Origin: an uncultured Isosphaeraceae bacterium
GTDB taxonomy: Bacteria; Planctomycetota; Phycisphaerae; Phycisphaerales; SM1A02
Assembly: GCA_964412415.1 (NCBI GenBank)
Contig: CAYPOZ010000007.1
Location: 5,984-31,774 of the forward strand
Reading direction: 5' to 3'
Length of the DNA stretch: 25,791 bases
The translations under genes were made by a program, and so were the position numbers. Position 1 is the stretch's first letter. Each line of letters opens with the position of its first letter. The notes below the pieces were generated by a model, which worked only from the letters and a program-made list of their open reading frames with translations, made no database searches and was not told the origin of the DNA. Positions 9,919-24,425 of the stretch are shown in pieces.

Positions 9919-11109
9919 ATGCCGCGTCCCCGCGCTCGTCATCAAGGTCCCCTCGGCGTGGGGCTCATCGGCACCAAGTTCATGGGTCGCGCCCACTCGG
10001 TGGCGTGGGCTGGGGCGCCGCGGTTCTTCGACCTTCCCGCCCCGGCGCTTGCCTGCGTGGCGGGCAAGGATGCCGCGGAGACCCACGAGTTCGGGAGGCG
10101 ATGGGGGTGGACGCGCTCGACGGCGGACTGGCGTGACCTCGTGGGCGATCCGGCCGTCACCCTCGTGGATGTCGCCGTCCCCAACAACCTCCACGCGGCG
10201 ATGTCGATCGCGGCGCTCGGGGCAGGCAAGCACGTCGCCTGCGAGAAGCCACTTGCGGGCACGCTCGCGGATGCGCGTCGCATGCGCGATGCGGCGCGCG
10301 CCGCCGCGCGCAAGGGAATCCGCACGTTCGTGTGGTTCAACTACCGCCGGGCGCCGGCCGTTGCGCTGATGCACCGCATGGTGAGGCAGGGGAGGATCGG
10401 CCGCATCTACCACGTGCGCGCCACCTACCTGCAGGACTGGGGCGGCCCGTCGACGCCGATGCTGTGGCGGTTCGATGCGTCGGCCGCCGGAAGCGGCGCG
10501 CACGGTGACCTCAACGCGCACATCGTTGACATGGCGCGCTTCGTGACGGGCGAGGAGGTCGTGGAGGTCAACGGCGCGGTGGAGCGCACGTTCGTCGAGC
10601 GGCGTGCGGCCGCTCCTGCGCGTCGCGGGGGGCGTGCGCGCACCCAGCGCAGCACCGTCGACGACTGCGTGGCGTTCCTCGCGCGCATGTCGGGCGGCGC
10701 GGTGGCGACGTTCGAGGCGTCGAGGGTGGCGACTGGCCACAAGAACCGGAACACGCTCGAGATCAACGGCGAGCGCGGGTCGGTGCGATTCGACTTCGAG
10801 CGCATGAACGAGCTCGAATGGTGGGATGACACGCAGGAGCAGGCGCTGCGCGGATGGACGCGCATCATGTGCACCGAGCCGGTGCACCCGTACGTGCGCG
10901 CGTACTGGCCTCCCGCTCACCTCATCGGCTACGAGCACGGCTTCGTGAGCCAGGCAGCGGACATCATGCGCACGCTCTCGGGACTGGAGCCGGAAGTGCC
11001 GCTGCCCGACTTCGACGACGCGTTCGCGACGCAGTGCGTGCTCGAGGCCGCGCTGCGCAGCGCGCGCACGCGCAGGCCGGTGCTGGTGAAGTCAGTGGTG
11101 CGCGTCTAG
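9919..11109 (+). CDS. Gfo/Idh/MocA family NAD(P)-dependent oxidoreductase
   Basis: VGLIGTKFMGRAH Rossmann start, GKHVACEKPLA, FNYRRAPA, YLQDW and GAHGDLNAHIVD. GGAGA Shine-Dalgarno (9906-9910) supports start 9919. Confidence 0.92.
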   Translation: MPRPRARHQGPLGVGLIGTKFMGRAHSVAWAGAPRFFDLPAPALACVAGKDAAETHEFGRRWGWTRSTADWRDLVGDPAVTLVDVAVPNNLHAAMSIAALGAGKHVACEKPLAGTLADARRMRDAARAAARKGIRTFVWFNYRRAPAVALMHRMVRQGRIGRIYHVRATYLQDWGGPSTPMLWRFDASAAGSGAHGDLNAHIVDMARFVTGEEVVEVNGAVERTFVERRAAAPARRGGRARTQRSTVDDCVAFLARMSGGAVATFEASRVATGHKNRNTLEINGERGSVRFDFERMNELEWWDDTQEQALRGWTRIMCTEPVHPYVRAYWPPAHLIGYEHGFVSQAADIMRTLSGLEPEVPLPDFDDAFATQCVLEAALRSARTRRPVLVKSVVRV

Positions 11110-11238
11110 CGGCGCCGGCGGGGCGCGCGGCAACGTGTTGCGCCGTGCGCGGCACGCAGGATGCCGCACCAGCCGCGGTTTTCGCCGTGCGGTCGCGCTA
11201 CACTTCCGGGCTTGCGCACGCTGTGCGCGCATCCACTC

Positions 11239-13368
11239 ATGCCCGTAGAGCACACCAGGAGTCCGCGCAGCCGCATCTCGCCCGATGCGCTCGATCGCCT
11301 CGAGGCCAGCGCGAATGCCGCGGTGGCGGCGCTCTCGTCGCTGCAGCGCGAGGACGGCCACTGGTGCGGGGAGCTCGAGGGCGACTCGATCCTCCAGAGC
11401 GAGTACATGCTCATGAAGTGGATCCTTGGCCAGGAGCGCGCGCTGATGGCCGATGGCCGCAGCGGATGGGACATGATGTGCCGGCTCGCCGCGCAGCTCC
11501 GCTCGCAGCAGCGCGCCGACGGCGGGTGGGGCCAGTACCCCGGCTCGGGCATCGACATCAGCGCCACCGTCAAGGCCTACCTCTGCCTGAAGCTGATGGG
11601 CGACGATCCCTCAGCGCCGCACATGGTGCGTGCACGGGAGCGGGTGCTTGAGCTTGGCGGTGCCGAGGGCTGCAACTCCTTCACCACCTTCTACCTCGCG
11701 TCGCTCGGCCAGGTGCCGTGGGATGCGGTGCCTGCGATCCCTCCAGAGGTCGTGTGGCTGCCGCGCTGGTTCTACTTCCACCTGGACAAGGTGAGCGCGT
11801 GGAGCCGCACGATGATCCTCCCGCTGGCCATCGTGAACGCGCACCGCCCGGTGCGCGAGCTCGCGCCGCACCAGCGCATCGACGAGCTCTACCTGAGCGC
11901 GCGTGCGCGCGGCTCGCTGCGGATGCGCGCGGACACGCCCGCGCCATGGAAGGCGTTCTTCCGGACCGTCGACCGCACGCTGAAGCTGATGCAGCGCTTC
12001 AGGCTGATGCCCTGGCGCGAGCAGGCGATCGCAGATGCGTTCGCGTGGATCATGCGCCGGGCCAGCCAGGAGATGCCTGCGCCGACGGAGGGCCTCGGCG
12101 CGATCTTCCCGCCGATGGTCTACCTGCAGGTGGTCTTCAAGGTGCTCGGCATCCCGCGGGACGACCCGCGCGTGAAGCAGGCCGAGCGAGACCTCGATGC
12201 ATTCATCATTGACGGGCCGACGCATGCCCGCATCCAGCCGTGCTTCTCGCCGGTGTGGGACACCGGCATCGCGCTGTATGCGCTGACCGACTGCGGTCTT
12301 GATGCGCAGGACGCACGGCTTGCGCGCGCGGCGCACTGGCTGTGCGGGCGCGAGTGCACGCACGTTGGCGACTGGATCCGCAACTGCGCGCCGGGCACGC
12401 AGGCCGGCGGCTGGTACTTCGAGTACGCCAACGCGTGGTACCCCGACTGCGACGACACGGCGATGGTGGCGATGGCGCTGCAGCGCTGCGGCGACAGCGA
12501 GAGCGTCGGGGCCGCGAGGCGTGGCATCGCATGGATGCTCGCCATGCAGAACGACGACGGCGGATGGGCCGCCTTCGACCGCACGCGTGACCGGCGCATC
12601 CTCGAGTACGTGCCGTTCGCGGACCACAATGCGATGCAGGACCCGTCGTGCCCCGACATCACCGGACGTGCGCTCGAGTGCCTGAGCTGGCACGGCATGC
12701 GCGTGGGCGACGCGGTGGTCGACCGCGCTGTCGCGTACATCCGCTCGCACCAGGAGCCCGACGGCAGCTTCTTCGGCCGCTGGGGGGTGAACTACATCTA
12801 CGGCACCTGGCAGGCCGTCATCGGCCCGATCCGATGCGGCGTCTCGCGCGACGCGGATTGGATCCGGAGCGCTGGCGCGTGGGTCAAGTCCGTGCAGAAG
12901 GCAGATGGGTCCTTCGGCGAGACCGCGAACTCGTATGTCGACCCGAGGCTGCGCGGAACAGGGCCATCCACGGCATCGCAGACCGCATGGGGCGCGATGA
13001 TCCTCCAGGAGGTCTTCGGCGCCGACGACCCTGACCTGCTCCGAGCGCTCGAGTGGCTTGCGCGCACGCAGCTCGATGCGCGCGCCGCGGCGGACCCTGC
13101 TGCCAACCCCGATGGCGATCCGGCCGGGAGCTGGCGCGAGACCGAGTGCACGGGCACCGGCTTCCCGAAGGTCTTCTACCTGCGCTACCACCTGTACCGC
13201 CTGTACTTCCCGGTGATGGCGCTGGGACGGTTCCTGCGAGGGCACGGGCGGACCTTGGCGGCCGCCCGCCCTGGGGCGTCAGCGGAGTCTCTCAGTTCGC
13301 CGGCGCGCGCGACGGGTGCGGGCCAGGTTGCGGTGGCGCTGGAGCCGGCCGGCGTGTCAGGTCGATAG
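11239..13368 (+). CDS. shc: Squalene-hopene cyclase
   Basis: ELEGDSILQSEY, QW repeats (QRADGGW, QNDDGGW, QEPDGSF, QKADGSF), catalytic DCDDTA (12445-12462), WGVNYIYGT and TGTGFPKVFYLRYHLY. TACACT box at 11199-11204 argues against start 11161. Confidence 0.96.
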   Translation: MPVEHTRSPRSRISPDALDRLEASANAAVAALSSLQREDGHWCGELEGDSILQSEYMLMKWILGQERALMADGRSGWDMMCRLAAQLRSQQRADGGWGQYPGSGIDISATVKAYLCLKLMGDDPSAPHMVRARERVLELGGAEGCNSFTTFYLASLGQVPWDAVPAIPPEVVWLPRWFYFHLDKVSAWSRTMILPLAIVNAHRPVRELAPHQRIDELYLSARARGSLRMRADTPAPWKAFFRTVDRTLKLMQRFRLMPWREQAIADAFAWIMRRASQEMPAPTEGLGAIFPPMVYLQVVFKVLGIPRDDPRVKQAERDLDAFIIDGPTHARIQPCFSPVWDTGIALYALTDCGLDAQDARLARAAHWLCGRECTHVGDWIRNCAPGTQAGGWYFEYANAWYPDCDDTAMVAMALQRCGDSESVGAARRGIAWMLAMQNDDGGWAAFDRTRDRRILEYVPFADHNAMQDPSCPDITGRALECLSWHGMRVGDAVVDRAVAYIRSHQEPDGSFFGRWGVNYIYGTWQAVIGPIRCGVSRDADWIRSAGAWVKSVQKADGSFGETANSYVDPRLRGTGPSTASQTAWGAMILQEVFGADDPDLLRALEWLARTQLDARAAADPAANPDGDPAGSWRETECTGTGFPKVFYLRYHLYRLYFPVMALGRFLRGHGRTLAAARPGASAESLSSPARATGAGQVAVALEPAGVSGR

Positions 13369-21057: not shown

Positions 21058-22605
21058 TCACTCGAAGCGGCCGCGATCCTCGATCCGGACGTCGAGCAGC
21101 TTGCGCAGGTCCTTGGGGCCTGCGTCGCCGATCGCCGCGAGACGGTCCACCAGCTTGGAGGGCTTGCGCACGGCGAGCCTGCCGAGAAGGCGGAACTTGG
21201 TGTCGAGGATCCCGCGCAGGTCGGCGGTCGTGTTGCGGGCGTGCCCGGACGGATACATCACCAGGCCGCTGTCGAGCGTGGTGCCGCCCTTGAGGCCCAT
21301 CACGAGAGAGGTCGGGATGCCGTCGGGGTAGCGCCGGTCGTACTCGGCGCCGCCGTGCTCGAAGGCGACCGTCGCCATGATCGCGCGCGTGCGCTCGTCG
21401 TGGATCGCCTCCTCGGAGTAGTCGTAGGGTCCGAGCATGAGCGCCTTCCACCACTCGTCGTTCGAGGTCGGCAGCCCGGCAGCGCCCACCGACTCGCGGA
21501 GCTCGTAGGCTTTCCGCAGCATCGTCGACACGATGTAGACCATAGAGTGATCCGCGCTCTGGCGCGTCTTCGGGTCCCGCTTGGCGGGATCCCCGATGAT
21601 GCCGAACGCAGGCTCGTACGCGAGGATTCGGATCGAGGCGAGGTCGCCGGGACGCTCGAGGATGCCGGGGTTCGAGCTGATGAGGTCGATCAGGCCCTGC
21701 AGCGCGCCCGCCGACTGGTGCTCGTAGAGGCCGAGCTTGAAGTGCATGCCCATCACGGCGAAGTCGTCGCCGGAGAAGCCCAGCACGAGATCGAATGGGC
21801 TGTCGCCCTGCGTGCGCTCGAACTGGCGGAACATGCTCTCGGGGTTGCGGAAGATGTCGCGCGGCCCCATGAACCCCGCCATTGAGCGGCGCATCGCGAC
21901 CACCGCGGCCTCCGCGCTGATCGCGGCGCTTGCGCCCTTGGAGTCGGAGAGCTGCTTGCCAGCGCGGATCGCCCGCCAGGGGATGTGATGCGCGACGACC
22001 ATGCCGATCGCGCTCTCGATCTGCTCCGCGCTCGCGCCAAGCATCGCGCCGTACACCGCAGCGCTCGCGATCGCGCCATGCACCACGTGGTCGATCTTGT
22101 AGGTCTTCAGGCTGAAGACCTCGGCGAGGCGGCCGCGGATCTCGTCGATGCAGGCCATGCCGCGCAGAGCCTCTGCGCCGCCAAGGCCGCCGACCTGCGC
22201 CGCCGCGATCGCGACGGGATAGAAGTCGTTGTGGCCGAACTCGCCGGCCGTGTGGCCAAGCGCGGGGTTGTAGCCGAAGTTCGTGCCGTTGGAGTCCCAC
22301 TCGCGGACCGCGGCGCTGTTGGCGACCACGGCCTTCTCCGGCGCGACGCGCCGTGAGCTTCCGAAGACGGTGGCTCCCTCGCGGTCGCGGTAGCCGAGCG
22401 CCTCCTCGCGCAGCAGCGTCGGCGCGTTCGTGCCGAGCGCGAGCGCCGAGAGGCCGCAGATCACCGCATCGGTGTGGAAGAGGGTGGTGCGGTCAAGCAC
22501 TGCGGCCGAGGGCTCGCCGCTGCGCATGAAGTCGATGGCGTACTGGCCGATGCCGAGCGCCTGGTTCGTGTGGCGTGGGAGGTTGACGTGGCTCATGGAG
22601 GTCAT
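21058..22605 (-). CDS. prpD: MmgE/PrpD family protein (2-methylcitrate dehydratase-like)
   Basis: VREWDSNGT, GHNDF, DEIRGRL, IDHVVHG, SDSKG, FKLGLYEHQSAG and PKTRQSADHS. Family assignment is good, exact substrate unproven. Alternative start at 22596. Confidence 0.85.
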   Translation of the reverse strand: MTSMSHVNLPRHTNQALGIGQYAIDFMRSGEPSAAVLDRTTLFHTDAVICGLSALALGTNAPTLLREEALGYRDREGATVFGSSRRVAPEKAVVANSAAVREWDSNGTNFGYNPALGHTAGEFGHNDFYPVAIAAAQVGGLGGAEALRGMACIDEIRGRLAEVFSLKTYKIDHVVHGAIASAAVYGAMLGASAEQIESAIGMVVAHHIPWRAIRAGKQLSDSKGASAAISAEAAVVAMRRSMAGFMGPRDIFRNPESMFRQFERTQGDSPFDLVLGFSGDDFAVMGMHFKLGLYEHQSAGALQGLIDLISSNPGILERPGDLASIRILAYEPAFGIIGDPAKRDPKTRQSADHSMVYIVSTMLRKAYELRESVGAAGLPTSNDEWWKALMLGPYDYSEEAIHDERTRAIMATVAFEHGGAEYDRRYPDGIPTSLVMGLKGGTTLDSGLVMYPSGHARNTTADLRGILDTKFRLLGRLAVRKPSKLVDRLAAIGDAGPKDLRKLLDVRIEDRGRFE

Positions 22606-22624: not shown

Positions 22625-23743
22625 TCAGGACATCAGGGCCTCGTACAGCTCGACGATTCCCTTGCCCTCGGTGGCGACGGTCTCGAAGATCGGGCGCCCG
22701 CCGGCGATGTCAAGGAGCTCGCGCACGTGCTTGGACTCGCCGGCGTGGTCCGCCTTGTTGGCGACGAAGAGGTCGGCGATCTCGAGGATGCCTGCCTTGT
22801 CCATCTGGACGGCGTCACCCATGCCAGGCACGGTGACGACGGCCGTGCGGTCGACGTGGTGGCGGATCGCCACGTCGTTCTGGCCGGCGCCCACAGTCTC
22901 GATGATCAGCGTCTCGAATCCTGCGGCGCCCACAAGCTCCGCGATCGTGGGGAGCGCGACGTAGTCCTCGCCGACGATCGCGAGCGAACGGTAGAAGACC
23001 TTGTCGTCGACGGCGTTGAAGTCCACGCGCAGCCGGTCGCCAAGCAGCGCGCCGCCGGTGATCGGGCTCATCGGGTCGAATGCGATGACCGCGATGCGCG
23101 TGCCACGCCGGACAGCCTCGCCGCAGAGCGCGGCAACGAGCGTGCTCTTGCCGGCGCCCGGCGCACCGGTGAGGCCAATCACCCGTGCCGGCCGCTTTCG
23201 CGTTGCGCCGGCGGGTAGCGCGCCAGCCTGCGCGAGGGAGATCTGGCGCGCGAGGATCGCCTCTGCCGGCCCGGTGGTGCGCGGCATGTACGGCTTCACG
23301 GAGCTTCGCACGCTCTCGATGATGTCCTCCATCCCGGTGCCGGTGTGGTAGACGCGCGCGACACCCGCATCGAGCAGCGTCTTCACGTCCTCCTGCGGGA
23401 TGATGCCGCCCACGTTCACCGGCACGTCCGGCCTGCCCACCGACTTGCACTCGTCGAGCAGCTTCGGCACCAGCACAAGGTGCGAGTTGCTCATCATCGA
23501 GCACGCGATGCAGTCGACATCCTCGTCGCGTGCTCCGATCGCGAGGCTGCGGGGGGTCTGCCAGAGCCCGGAGTAGATGACGTGGACTCCGCTATCGCGC
23601 AGCACGCGGGCGATCAGCTTCACGCCACGGTCATGGCCATCGAGCCCGATCTTGCCGAGCAGTACGCGGGGCCGGTGAGGCAGGTCCGCGCAGCGGTCCC
23701 GCTTCTCGATCGACGTGGTGGGGTCGTTGAGGGTGCGAGTCAT
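22625..23743 (-). CDS. Fusion of a cobalamin-binding domain (mutase small-subunit type) and a MeaB/ArgK-type GTPase
   Basis: N-terminal RPRVLLGKIGLDGHDRG (DxHxxG) and VGGIIPQED. C-terminal GLTGAPGAGKST, FDPMSPITGGALLGDRLR, IETVGAGQ, GDAVQMDKAGILEIAD and NKAD. Confidence 0.92.
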   Translation of the reverse strand: MTRTLNDPTTSIEKRDRCADLPHRPRVLLGKIGLDGHDRGVKLIARVLRDSGVHVIYSGLWQTPRSLAIGARDEDVDCIACSMMSNSHLVLVPKLLDECKSVGRPDVPVNVGGIIPQEDVKTLLDAGVARVYHTGTGMEDIIESVRSSVKPYMPRTTGPAEAILARQISLAQAGALPAGATRKRPARVIGLTGAPGAGKSTLVAALCGEAVRRGTRIAVIAFDPMSPITGGALLGDRLRVDFNAVDDKVFYRSLAIVGEDYVALPTIAELVGAAGFETLIIETVGAGQNDVAIRHHVDRTAVVTVPGMGDAVQMDKAGILEIADLFVANKADHAGESKHVRELLDIAGGRPIFETVATEGKGIVELYEALMS

Positions 23744-23756
23744 CGGGCGGGAAAGA

Positions 23757-24425
23757 CTACTTCATCCCGCCCACAGCGTCCGCGGCCGGCTTGGCACCCT
23801 TCTTCGCCAGCGTCGCGTCGGCGTTCCAGACCTGCGGATCGAAGCGGTGGGCATACGTTCCGACGATGAGGTGCATGCCGCCGAACTTGTAGTCGTCGAG
23901 CACCAAGGGAGCGCCACCCCGTACCTCCAGCGTCGCGATCGACTTGGACATCCAGCGGCTCATGTCGATGCCGGTCACGTCGTCGTGGCCGATCCTGCGG
24001 GCGCCTGCGTGCAATGTGCCGTCATCGTCAAGCCTGAAGCTGCGCGAGGCGGTGCGTGCCAGGCTCACGACGCACCATCCCGTGCCAAGGATGCCGCACC
24101 CGATCATGTAGACCCAGAGCTGGAGAGGGCGGTCGTACGCAGCCACGGGGGTGGGCGCGCCCGCCGCATACTTGTCGATGACGTCGCGCGCGGCCTGGTA
24201 GTCCGCTTCCTGCTCTGCAGTGAGCCTCGGTGCACCTGGCACGCTCATGTCCGCGTACCGCTTCGTGCGTGCGGTCGCCGACTGGTACTCGGCGAACTCC
24301 GCCTCCTGGCGAGGGATCCGCTCCCAGTAGTCGTACGCGCCCCAGAGCCCCAGCAGGGCGCACATGATCGCATAGCCAGCGGTGAACCAGAAGTTCCTCG
24401 GTCGAATGCGGCTCTCGAGCGCCAT
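23757..24425 (-). CDS. Hypothetical membrane protein (two TM helices plus a beta-rich C-terminal domain)
   Basis: Hydrophobic segments FWFTAGYAIMCALLGLWGAY and LQLWVYMIGCGILGTGWCVVSL. TAACCT box 6 nt before the ATG. Confidence 0.75.
   Translation of the reverse strand: MALESRIRPRNFWFTAGYAIMCALLGLWGAYDYWERIPRQEAEFAEYQSATARTKRYADMSVPGAPRLTAEQEADYQAARDVIDKYAAGAPTPVAAYDRPLQLWVYMIGCGILGTGWCVVSLARTASRSFRLDDDGTLHAGARRIGHDDVTGIDMSRWMSKSIATLEVRGGAPLVLDDYKFGGMHLIVGTYAHRFDPQVWNADATLAKKGAKPAADAVGGMK

Follow-up and report, generated by a model that had tools for sequence, protein, structure and literature searches.

The only arrangements described for the G-protein chaperones of adenosylcobalamin (AdoCbl)-dependent acyl-CoA mutases are the free MeaB/MMAA dimer and, as a notable exception, the fully fused IcmF (2023 structural papers and a 2024 review: PMC10481361, PMC9974510, and PMC11672702). 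MeaB and MMAA (PDB accession no. 2qm7, 8dpb, and 6cum) are stand-alone proteins of about 330 amino acids (aa) with a G3E GTPase core and a dimerization arm. In IcmF (Cupriavidus metallidurans; PDB accession no. 4xc6, 5cjt, and 8ssl; NCBIfam NF045497), a B12-binding domain is followed by a G domain, a linker, and the substrate TIM barrel in a single polypeptide. The isobutyryl-CoA mutase IcmA/IcmB (Streptomyces cinnamonensis type) and the 2-hydroxyisobutyryl-CoA mutase HcmA/HcmB (PDB accession no. 4r3u) each combine a large subunit that consists of the barrel alone (about 560 aa) with a separate B12 subunit, and each has a separate MeaB-like chaperone. Here, we analyzed a window of 25,791 nucleotides (the whole stretch of contig CAYPOZ010000007.1 under study; contig C7 in our numbering) from a Phycisphaerales metagenome-assembled genome (MAG; 2.78 Mb, 405 contigs, 81% complete). 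In this window, a single open reading frame (ORF) joins a cobalamin-binding domain to a MeaB-type G domain. The encoded protein, hereafter the fusion, is likely the B12-binding small (beta) subunit of a two-gene AdoCbl-dependent acyl-CoA mutase, with a MeaB-type chaperone joined at its C terminus and the catalytic barrel encoded by an unlinked gene; the enzyme is probably an isobutyryl-CoA mutase (ICM).

To see which residues are conserved, we compared the fusion with 13 divergent fusions that are 28 to 66% identical to the window protein, and we also used an alignment of 29 fusions. The gene, its domains, and its motifs are located in the window as follows.

22625..23743, minus strand: fusion gene, encoding a 372-aa mutase small subunit (B12 domain) plus MeaB-type G protein (ORF list, Pfam, NCBIfam, and orthologues at 63-97% identity)
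23330..23668, minus strand: mutase-type cobalamin-binding domain, residues 26-138 (PF02310, E 6e-20; TIGR00640, 141 bits)
23624..23641, minus strand: DxHxxG motif (DGHDRG), residues 35-40; D35, H37, and G40 invariant across the 13 divergent fusions
23189..23329, minus strand: linker, residues 139-185 (PRK09435 alignment), with a helix at 160-172 in the secondary structure of the AlphaFold 2 (AF2) model
22637..23188, minus strand: MeaB-type G3E GTPase core, residues 186-369 (PF03308 positions 33-230 of 273, E 4.4e-50)
23141..23167, minus strand: P-loop GAPGAGKST, residues 193-201; G193, G196, G198, K199, and S200 invariant across the 13
23027..23056, minus strand: switch I region GGALLGDRLR, residues 230-239; G231, A232, D236, R237, and R239 invariant across the 13
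22880..22900, minus strand: switch II ETVGAGQ, residues 282-288; E282, G285, and Q288 invariant across the 13
22790..22825, minus strand: switch III GMGDAVQMDKAG, residues 307-318; D310, Q313, and K316 invariant in the 13 and in the 29 fusions
22748..22759, minus strand: guanine-specificity motif NKAD, residues 329-332; D332 invariant in the alignment of 29 fusions

An earlier reading of this DNA, made from the sequence alone (the sequence-only reading), had described a 372-aa ORF joining a DGHDRG cobalamin domain to a MeaB-type G domain. The ORF list (ATG start, TGA stop, 372 codons), Pfam, and NCBIfam confirm this description. The B12 domain passes the curated threshold of TIGR00640 (acid_CoA_mut_C; 141.4 bits against a cutoff of 57.45), and its best solved relatives are the mutase small subunit of A. 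pernix (2yxb) and HcmB (4r3u_C). H37 is predicted to be the lower axial cobalt ligand in base-off/His-on binding. The surrounding motif reads LDGHDRG, as in free small subunits, whereas IcmF has FDGHDA. The linker matches part of the N-terminal helical region of MeaB (residues 139 to 337 align with MeaB positions 11 to 211 in NCBIfam PRK09435), and the linker region of IcmF is lacking.

The G domain exceeds the PF03308 cutoff by a wide margin (170.6 versus 23.1 bits), has 6cum as its best solved relative (146 bits), and shares the P-loop, switches I to III, and NKxD motif of MeaB and MMAA. Switch III follows the MeaB pattern GxGDxxQxxK, in contrast to EFGAASQLEK in IcmF, although its Gln and Lys are conserved in IcmF as well. 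Q313 and K316 align with IcmF Q341 and K344 (alignment to wild-type IcmF and to the Q341A entry 8ssl) and correspond to MeaB Q185 and K188. D310 is presumably MeaB D182, going by the motif pattern. G309 of switch III and the GG motif are likewise invariant in the 13 divergent fusions, whereas the NKxD motif as a whole varies among them, unlike the P-loop and the switches. Because the profile matches stop at position 230 of 273 in Pfam and, starting from position 34, at 233 of 300 in the MeaB equivalog TIGR00750, the fusion ends where the C-terminal dimerization arm of MeaB would begin. The arm is absent, as in IcmF: the protein terminates 3 residues past the PF03308 match, and the TIGR00750 score (178.5 bits) is below the cutoff of 240.75. 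The fusion is therefore probably not an obligate dimer, unlike MeaB. No dedicated NCBIfam model exists for the two-domain B12/MeaB layout.

The sequence-only reading had also pointed out that the ORF stops right after the G-domain core. This stop is a conserved feature. Full-length, colinear orthologues with the same stop position occur in 31 of 40 related Phycisphaerales genomes (63 to 97% identity), several of them closed or nearly closed (e.g., G022, G035, and G039). A protein database search with the fusion gave 7,978 significant matches among 8,000 candidates scored, and the best 120 of these share both the stop and the two Pfam domains; nearly all are 370 to 376 aa long, at 75 to 97% identity, and where a source is named, most come from MAGs of Phycisphaerae or Planctomycetota. 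In the databases, homologues carry names such as "cobalamin-dependent protein," "hypothetical protein," "methylmalonyl-CoA mutase cobalamin-binding domain/chain," and "LAO/AO transport system ATPase." Could the ORF nevertheless be an icmF cut short by truncation or misassembly, or else part of a pseudogene? Its domain order is that of the IcmF N terminus, the assembly is fragmented into 405 contigs, and a real icmF on contig C76 is broken by a scaffold gap. However, the same length and stop recur in the 31 relatives, including the closed or nearly closed genomes, and in the database homologues; the gene lies at least 2 kb from the contig end and has a conserved neighbor downstream; both domains fall outside the IcmF clade (see below); and the fusion scores only 140 bits against the IcmF equivalog NF045497, for which the cutoff is 1500. 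We give this explanation next to no chance, and the possibility of a broken icmF, raised by the sequence-only reading as one that would undo its proposal, can be set aside.

We then looked for the catalytic subunit. The Pfam scan gave no PF01642 match in the fusion protein, and no mutase barrel is present in the window: the large ORFs were scanned against Pfam, and genome-wide PF01642 matches are confined to contigs C74, C76, C194, C332, and C333, with none on C7. The window thus lacks an acyl-CoA mutase large subunit, as had been claimed. The five contigs hold three mutase barrel sets: C76, C332 plus C333, and C74 plus C194. Contigs C74 and C194 carry the N-terminal and C-terminal parts, respectively, of one barrel that ends in GGPEW directly before the stop codon, has no B12 domain, and is followed on C194 by a histidyl-tRNA synthetase gene. 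This is an orphan barrel, a catalytic large subunit of about 560 aa, and thus the kind of gene that the sequence-only reading had suggested looking for elsewhere in the genome. The same genus has intact orthologues of this barrel (e.g., G001 C56:4435-6012). The layout resembles IcmA/IcmB and HcmA/HcmB in pairing a barrel-only large subunit with a separate B12 subunit. It differs from them in that the fusion carries an arm-less chaperone covalently and that its lineage has no single operon; it differs from IcmF in that the barrel is a separate, unlinked gene. Two further B12 domains occur in the genome, one in MetH (C24) and one in a small sensor-like protein (C1).

The other two barrel sets are an IcmF and a conventional three-gene system. 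Contig C76 (loci L002, L006, L012, and L015) holds a true IcmF broken by the scaffold gap; a stretch of about 70 residues appears twice, before and after the run of Ns. On C332 and C333 (L005, L007, and L013), genes for a free B12-binding small subunit, for a barrel divided between the two short contigs, and for a full-length MeaB with arm stand in one row. Given these mutases in the same assembly, the fusion might be only a chaperone for one of them, with its B12 domain acting as a docking decoy. Both, however, have their own B12 and G components, and both are missing from four same-genus genomes that keep the fusion. Their contigs are also outliers in composition (85th to 91st percentile, with C76 a tetranucleotide outlier at the 91st), whereas C7, C74, and C194 are typical. 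C76 and C332/C333 may therefore be accessory or misbinned, in the case of C76 because IcmF is absent from the four same-genus genomes. A chaperone-only role is highly improbable.

Comparison across the 40 relatives supports the pairing of the fusion with the orphan barrel. In a search with the fusion, it was itself the sole match at an E value of ≤1e-20 in most carriers; a free small subunit or MeaB would score between 1e-21 and 1e-37 and would therefore be seen. The only PF01642 match in the same relatives is an open frame of about 560 to 720 aa in which the barrel match reaches the end of the profile, and no DxHxxG motif follows the barrel in the 11 partner barrels examined. Fusion and barrel occur together in 29 relatives and are both lacking in 7, with 2 genomes having only the fusion and 2 only the barrel (Fisher's exact test, P = 6e-5, ignoring phylogeny). 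Four genomes without any barrel (G027, G032, G033, and G038) also lack the fusion, and two that have neither the fusion nor this barrel (G021, of family f1, and G037) carry a classical methylmalonyl-CoA mutase (MCM) and MeaB instead.

Gene order in more distant lineages points the same way. In three divergent clusters, a barrel-only gene of 500 to 541 aa lies immediately upstream of the fusion or overlaps it, at the following loci.

L127 and L128: barrel adjacent to fusion P0158
L129: barrel adjacent to fusion P0133
L130: barrel adjacent to fusion P0163

In two Phycisphaerales MAGs (L049 and L053), the barrel is located 2 to 6 kb upstream of the fusion. One relative, G028 (L040:5500-8600), has an unfused order of small subunit, overlapping full-length MeaB with arm, and then a 559-aa barrel. 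This barrel carries the MCM-type Y/R signature (see below), and the gene order is as in the fusion and IcmF; the operon is a plausible picture of the state before fusion. As a separate observation, electron-transfer flavoprotein genes (beta, or beta plus alpha) directly follow the fusion in two divergent lineages (L125:11192-11992 and L131:1854-3657), which fits an acyl-CoA dehydrogenase-linked butyryl-CoA catabolism.

These data also bear on the second alternative of the sequence-only reading, a stand-alone B12 carrier or sensor. Such a protein, or one that stores cobalamin, would hold the cofactor in its B12 domain and use its GTPase to control release to other clients, and it would not serve as a catalytic mutase subunit. 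B12-binding domains serve as sensors in other protein families, and no barrel is found in the window or, in most relatives, nearby. Yet TIGR00640 identifies the B12 domain as specifically that of a mutase small subunit, no B12 partner other than the fusion is available to the barrel in these genomes, the fusion abuts barrel genes in three other lineages, and the barrel-less genomes are also without the fusion. With co-occurrence, the lack, in most relatives, of any other B12 small-subunit or MeaB homologue, and adjacency all favoring a small subunit that acts with a barrel in trans, we consider a stand-alone carrier or sensor very unlikely.

To assess the substrate, we examined the specificity residues of the partner barrel. 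Among solved structures, it scores highest with HcmA (4r3u; 510 bits, compared with 462 bits for MCM). The position of MCM Tyr89 was fixed by alignment to the Y89F entry 5req. At this position the partner barrels have Phe (in RQFAGFG), and at that of MCM Arg207 they have Gln (in EFH[AS]QNE). The Asp117 position specific to 2-hydroxyisobutyryl-CoA mutase (HCM) is Ala. A motif scan of all loci gave F/Q/A for all 11 Phycisphaerales partner barrels, and controls behaved as expected, with Y/R in classical MCM and I/Q/D in a Mycobacterium HCM-type barrel. The combination of Phe and Gln, at positions that we tested by alignment, is what we take to be the signature of isobutyryl-CoA mutase, and it is also that of the IcmF barrel. 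The Phe/Gln pair therefore makes an isobutyryl-CoA/n-butyryl-CoA mutase the most likely enzyme, and judging from these residues, the fusion and its barrel together are probably an ICM. In the divergent lineages, the barrel beside fusion P0133 is also F/Q/A, whereas that beside P0163 is Y/R, and so fused small subunits are not restricted to a single class of substrate.

We next asked how the two domains relate to IcmF and MeaB, a comparison by trees that had been proposed in the sequence-only reading. In phmmer searches, the G domain of the fusion scored 125 bits on the free MeaB of the same genome but 70 to 90 bits on 13 G domains from IcmF. The B12 domain is nearest to free small subunits; it scored 101 bits on one of them and was mostly below threshold on IcmF. 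In the G-domain tree (113 rows), IcmF forms one clade (Shimodaira-Hasegawa-like approximate likelihood ratio test [SH-aLRT] support, 99; stem length, 1.46) and the Phycisphaerales fusions form another (support, 100). Other fusions appear in three or four further places, and at least two origins are required by the starred branches. The B12 tree likewise recovers IcmF as one clade (support, 100; stem length, 3.4), and all fusions group with small subunits. Both trees are quick ones with many deep forks open, and they show just that the fusion is not nested in IcmF, from which it is separated by long, well-supported branches. Since both domains fall outside the IcmF clade, the fusion arose independently from a small subunit and a MeaB and is not a split IcmF; an origin by fission of IcmF, considered as a candidate, was rejected because the domain trees and phmmer scores alike group the fusion with the free forms of the small subunit and MeaB. 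The proposal of a split IcmF acting with a barrel in trans therefore holds for the layout and probably for the mechanism, given the barrel on C74 and C194, the co-occurrence, and the adjacency in three lineages, but not for the descent.

How the enzyme might work can be sketched with the mechanisms in PMC10481361 and PMC9974510 as a template. In IcmF and MeaB, switch III residues act across the G:G interface, where they complete the GTPase site of the partner and wedge the mutase open (PMC10481361). In the fusion, the B12 domain would dock on the barrel and supply His37 as the lower cobalt ligand, and the tethered G domain would be monomeric at rest, as in IcmF. Binding of GTP would then lead the G domain to pair with that of a second small subunit, so that switch III of one protomer (D310, Q313, and K316) would complete the GTPase site of the other and wedge the B12 domain off the barrel. 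At this stage, a PduO-type adenosyltransferase (C22:15480-15989) might load AdoCbl, or damaged cobalamin might leave, and GTP hydrolysis would close the enzyme. With no tether between module and barrel, the module may dissociate as the enzyme opens. Adenosyltransferases of family PF01923 are encoded in this genome but also in nearly all relatives, including those without a mutase, and are thus not diagnostic.

Several points weigh against the reading of the fusion as the small subunit of a two-gene mutase. Neither in this genome nor in most relatives is the fusion linked to the barrel. Closed relatives have hundreds of kilobases between the two genes; the positions are 139 kb and 532 kb on a single contig in G010 and 0.60 Mb and 1.99 Mb in G022. 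The pairing therefore rests on the phyletic pattern. That pattern is confounded by shared ancestry, as the pair is present in families f1 to f3 and absent in f4 and f5. There are also exceptions on both sides, with the fusion but not this barrel in G018 (86% complete) and G034 (70% complete) and the barrel but not the fusion in G014 and G023, which are fairly complete or partial genomes. The presence of the C76 and C332/C333 mutases in the same assembly counts here as well. As for the substrate, we infer it from two residues, which would be compatible with a related substrate too, and complex formation, cofactor binding, and activity of the fusion are predicted from sequence and model. An AF2 model built from 29 sequences (predicted local distance difference test [pLDDT], 85.9; predicted template modeling score [pTM], 0.86) superposes as a whole on the B12-plus-G half of IcmF chains (TMq, 0.80 to 0.83; root mean square deviation, ~3 Å), with single-domain matches to MeaB and small subunits ranking after, but since AlphaFold was trained on IcmF structures, this packing is supportive rather than independent and is maybe partly memorized.

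An exhaustive search of 50%-identity representatives for the B12-plus-MeaB layout without a barrel, another search suggested at the outset, yielded at least 12 further divergent clusters from metagenomes, with proteins of 360 to 410 aa that cover both domains, down to 31% identity. Fusions that are encoded by one ORF and lack the arm are, among named genomes, essentially confined to Planctomycetota. Of 150 genomes sampled from the phylum, just two outside the order had the fusion, and 46 had IcmF above its cutoff. We found no description of the two-domain B12/MeaB protein in the searchable library. The sequence-only reading had allowed that the architecture might prove already common and characterized; common it is, but the literature yielded no characterization. 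The fusion architecture is thus real, conserved, and widespread, and apparently uncharacterized experimentally.

We rejected the idea that the fusion is widespread in cultured taxa. The apparent matches were two genes with a stop between them and a full-length MeaB; spurious single matches came from the alignment running through an in-frame stop, which translation exposed. A small subunit and MeaB are adjacent but separate in Chloroflexus islandicus, Schwartzia, Veillonella, haloarchaea, Bathyarchaeota, and others. At about positions 10000 to 11400 of L058 and L059 (C. islandicus) and of L067 and L074 (Schwartzia succinivorans), the small subunit and full-length MeaB are in the same frame with a single stop and a short spacer. 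Readthrough of this stop would give a fusion, and the match ranking favors such same-frame cases. L120 was likewise rejected as a true fusion, the locus being frameshifted. In an uncultured Planctomycetaceae MAG (L066:8396-12757), a frameshifted barrel gene is followed by a 928-aa frame that runs without a stop from a B12 domain through an arm-less G domain into an AMP-dependent acyl-CoA synthetase. The three are either truly fused or joined by the loss of a stop codon.

The fusion sits in a tight minus-strand run consisting of a kinase-like gene (truncated at its 5' end by the edge of the window), a gene for a 222-aa protein, the fusion, and a PrpD-like gene. The two immediate neighbors are located as follows.

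23757..24425, minus strand: 222-aa protein with two hydrophobic stretches, 13 bp upstream of the fusion (no Pfam or NCBIfam match)
21058..22605, minus strand: divergent MmgE/PrpD-family protein of 515 aa, 19 bp downstream of the fusion (PF03972 and PF19305)

The 222-aa protein is conserved upstream of the fusion in the genus and at L017, L019, and L021 to L025 (36 to 87% identity by tblastn). The PrpD-like protein scores 93 bits against a PrpD cutoff of 950, and its best solved relative has an E value of just 3e-9. Other large ORFs in the window encode a Mur ligase, MraY, MutS, a ZIP transporter, a squalene-hopene cyclase, a binding protein, an MCP, NadB, and proteins without assignment. The squalene-hopene cyclase gene (positions 11161-13368, plus strand) has both cyclase domains (E values of 1e-98 to 1e-112) and is unrelated to the fusion.

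The PrpD-like neighbor raises the possibility that the mutase formed by the fusion and its barrel acts on an acyl-CoA other than isobutyryl-CoA, in a pathway with the divergent MmgE/PrpD-family enzyme. Besides the 19-bp spacing here, the two genes overlap by 4 bp in L019, they are adjacent in the same genus and several other relatives (at least eight related genomes), and 29 of the 31 relatives with the fusion have the PrpD-like gene. In G021 (88% complete), the fusion, this barrel type, and the PrpD-like gene are all missing together. The co-occurrence follows the same family-level split as that of the barrel, however, and is therefore explicable by ancestry, and the specificity residues are of the ICM type. 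In other relatives the PrpD-like gene lies 8 to 56 kb from the fusion; it is not within 8 kb of it in G010, G022, and G035 and is on the opposite strand in L046, L047, and L048. None of the divergent fusion loci and unfused operons examined has a PrpD-like gene nearby. With synteny confined to close relatives, a varying strand, and absence at divergent loci, we rejected a functional operon with this gene as the explanation. A functional link between the two genes is possible, and we keep the alternative substrate and pathway as a quite unlikely rival to an ICM.

The fusion represents a natural third arrangement, in which the chaperone is tied to the cofactor-binding subunit and not to the catalytic barrel. 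Its composition is the same as that of the "minimal system," a complex of MeaB and the cobalamin domain of MCM (8dpb; PMC9974510) whose engineering was needed to capture active MeaB. Being small (372 aa plus about 560 aa) and natural, the pair of fusion and barrel could help to address how GTP-driven pairing of G domains opens the mutase and whether cofactor exchange needs the barrel. We give some, though clearly minor, weight to a broader view in which the arm-less B12/G fusions are a distinct, repeatedly evolved class of self-chaperoning small subunits, independent of IcmF, whose module could move to and from a free barrel and which, in Phycisphaerales, may serve a PrpD-linked pathway with a substrate other than isobutyryl-CoA. 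If true, such a shuttling module would allow cofactor loading and repair away from the catalytic subunit, unlike the obligate MeaB dimer or the filament-forming IcmF. The partner barrels, for their part, call for a correction in annotation, as they are usually named methylmalonyl-CoA mutase yet carry the isobutyryl-CoA mutase signature. For a common order of aquatic bacteria, this signature would change the short-chain acyl-CoA metabolism that is predicted.

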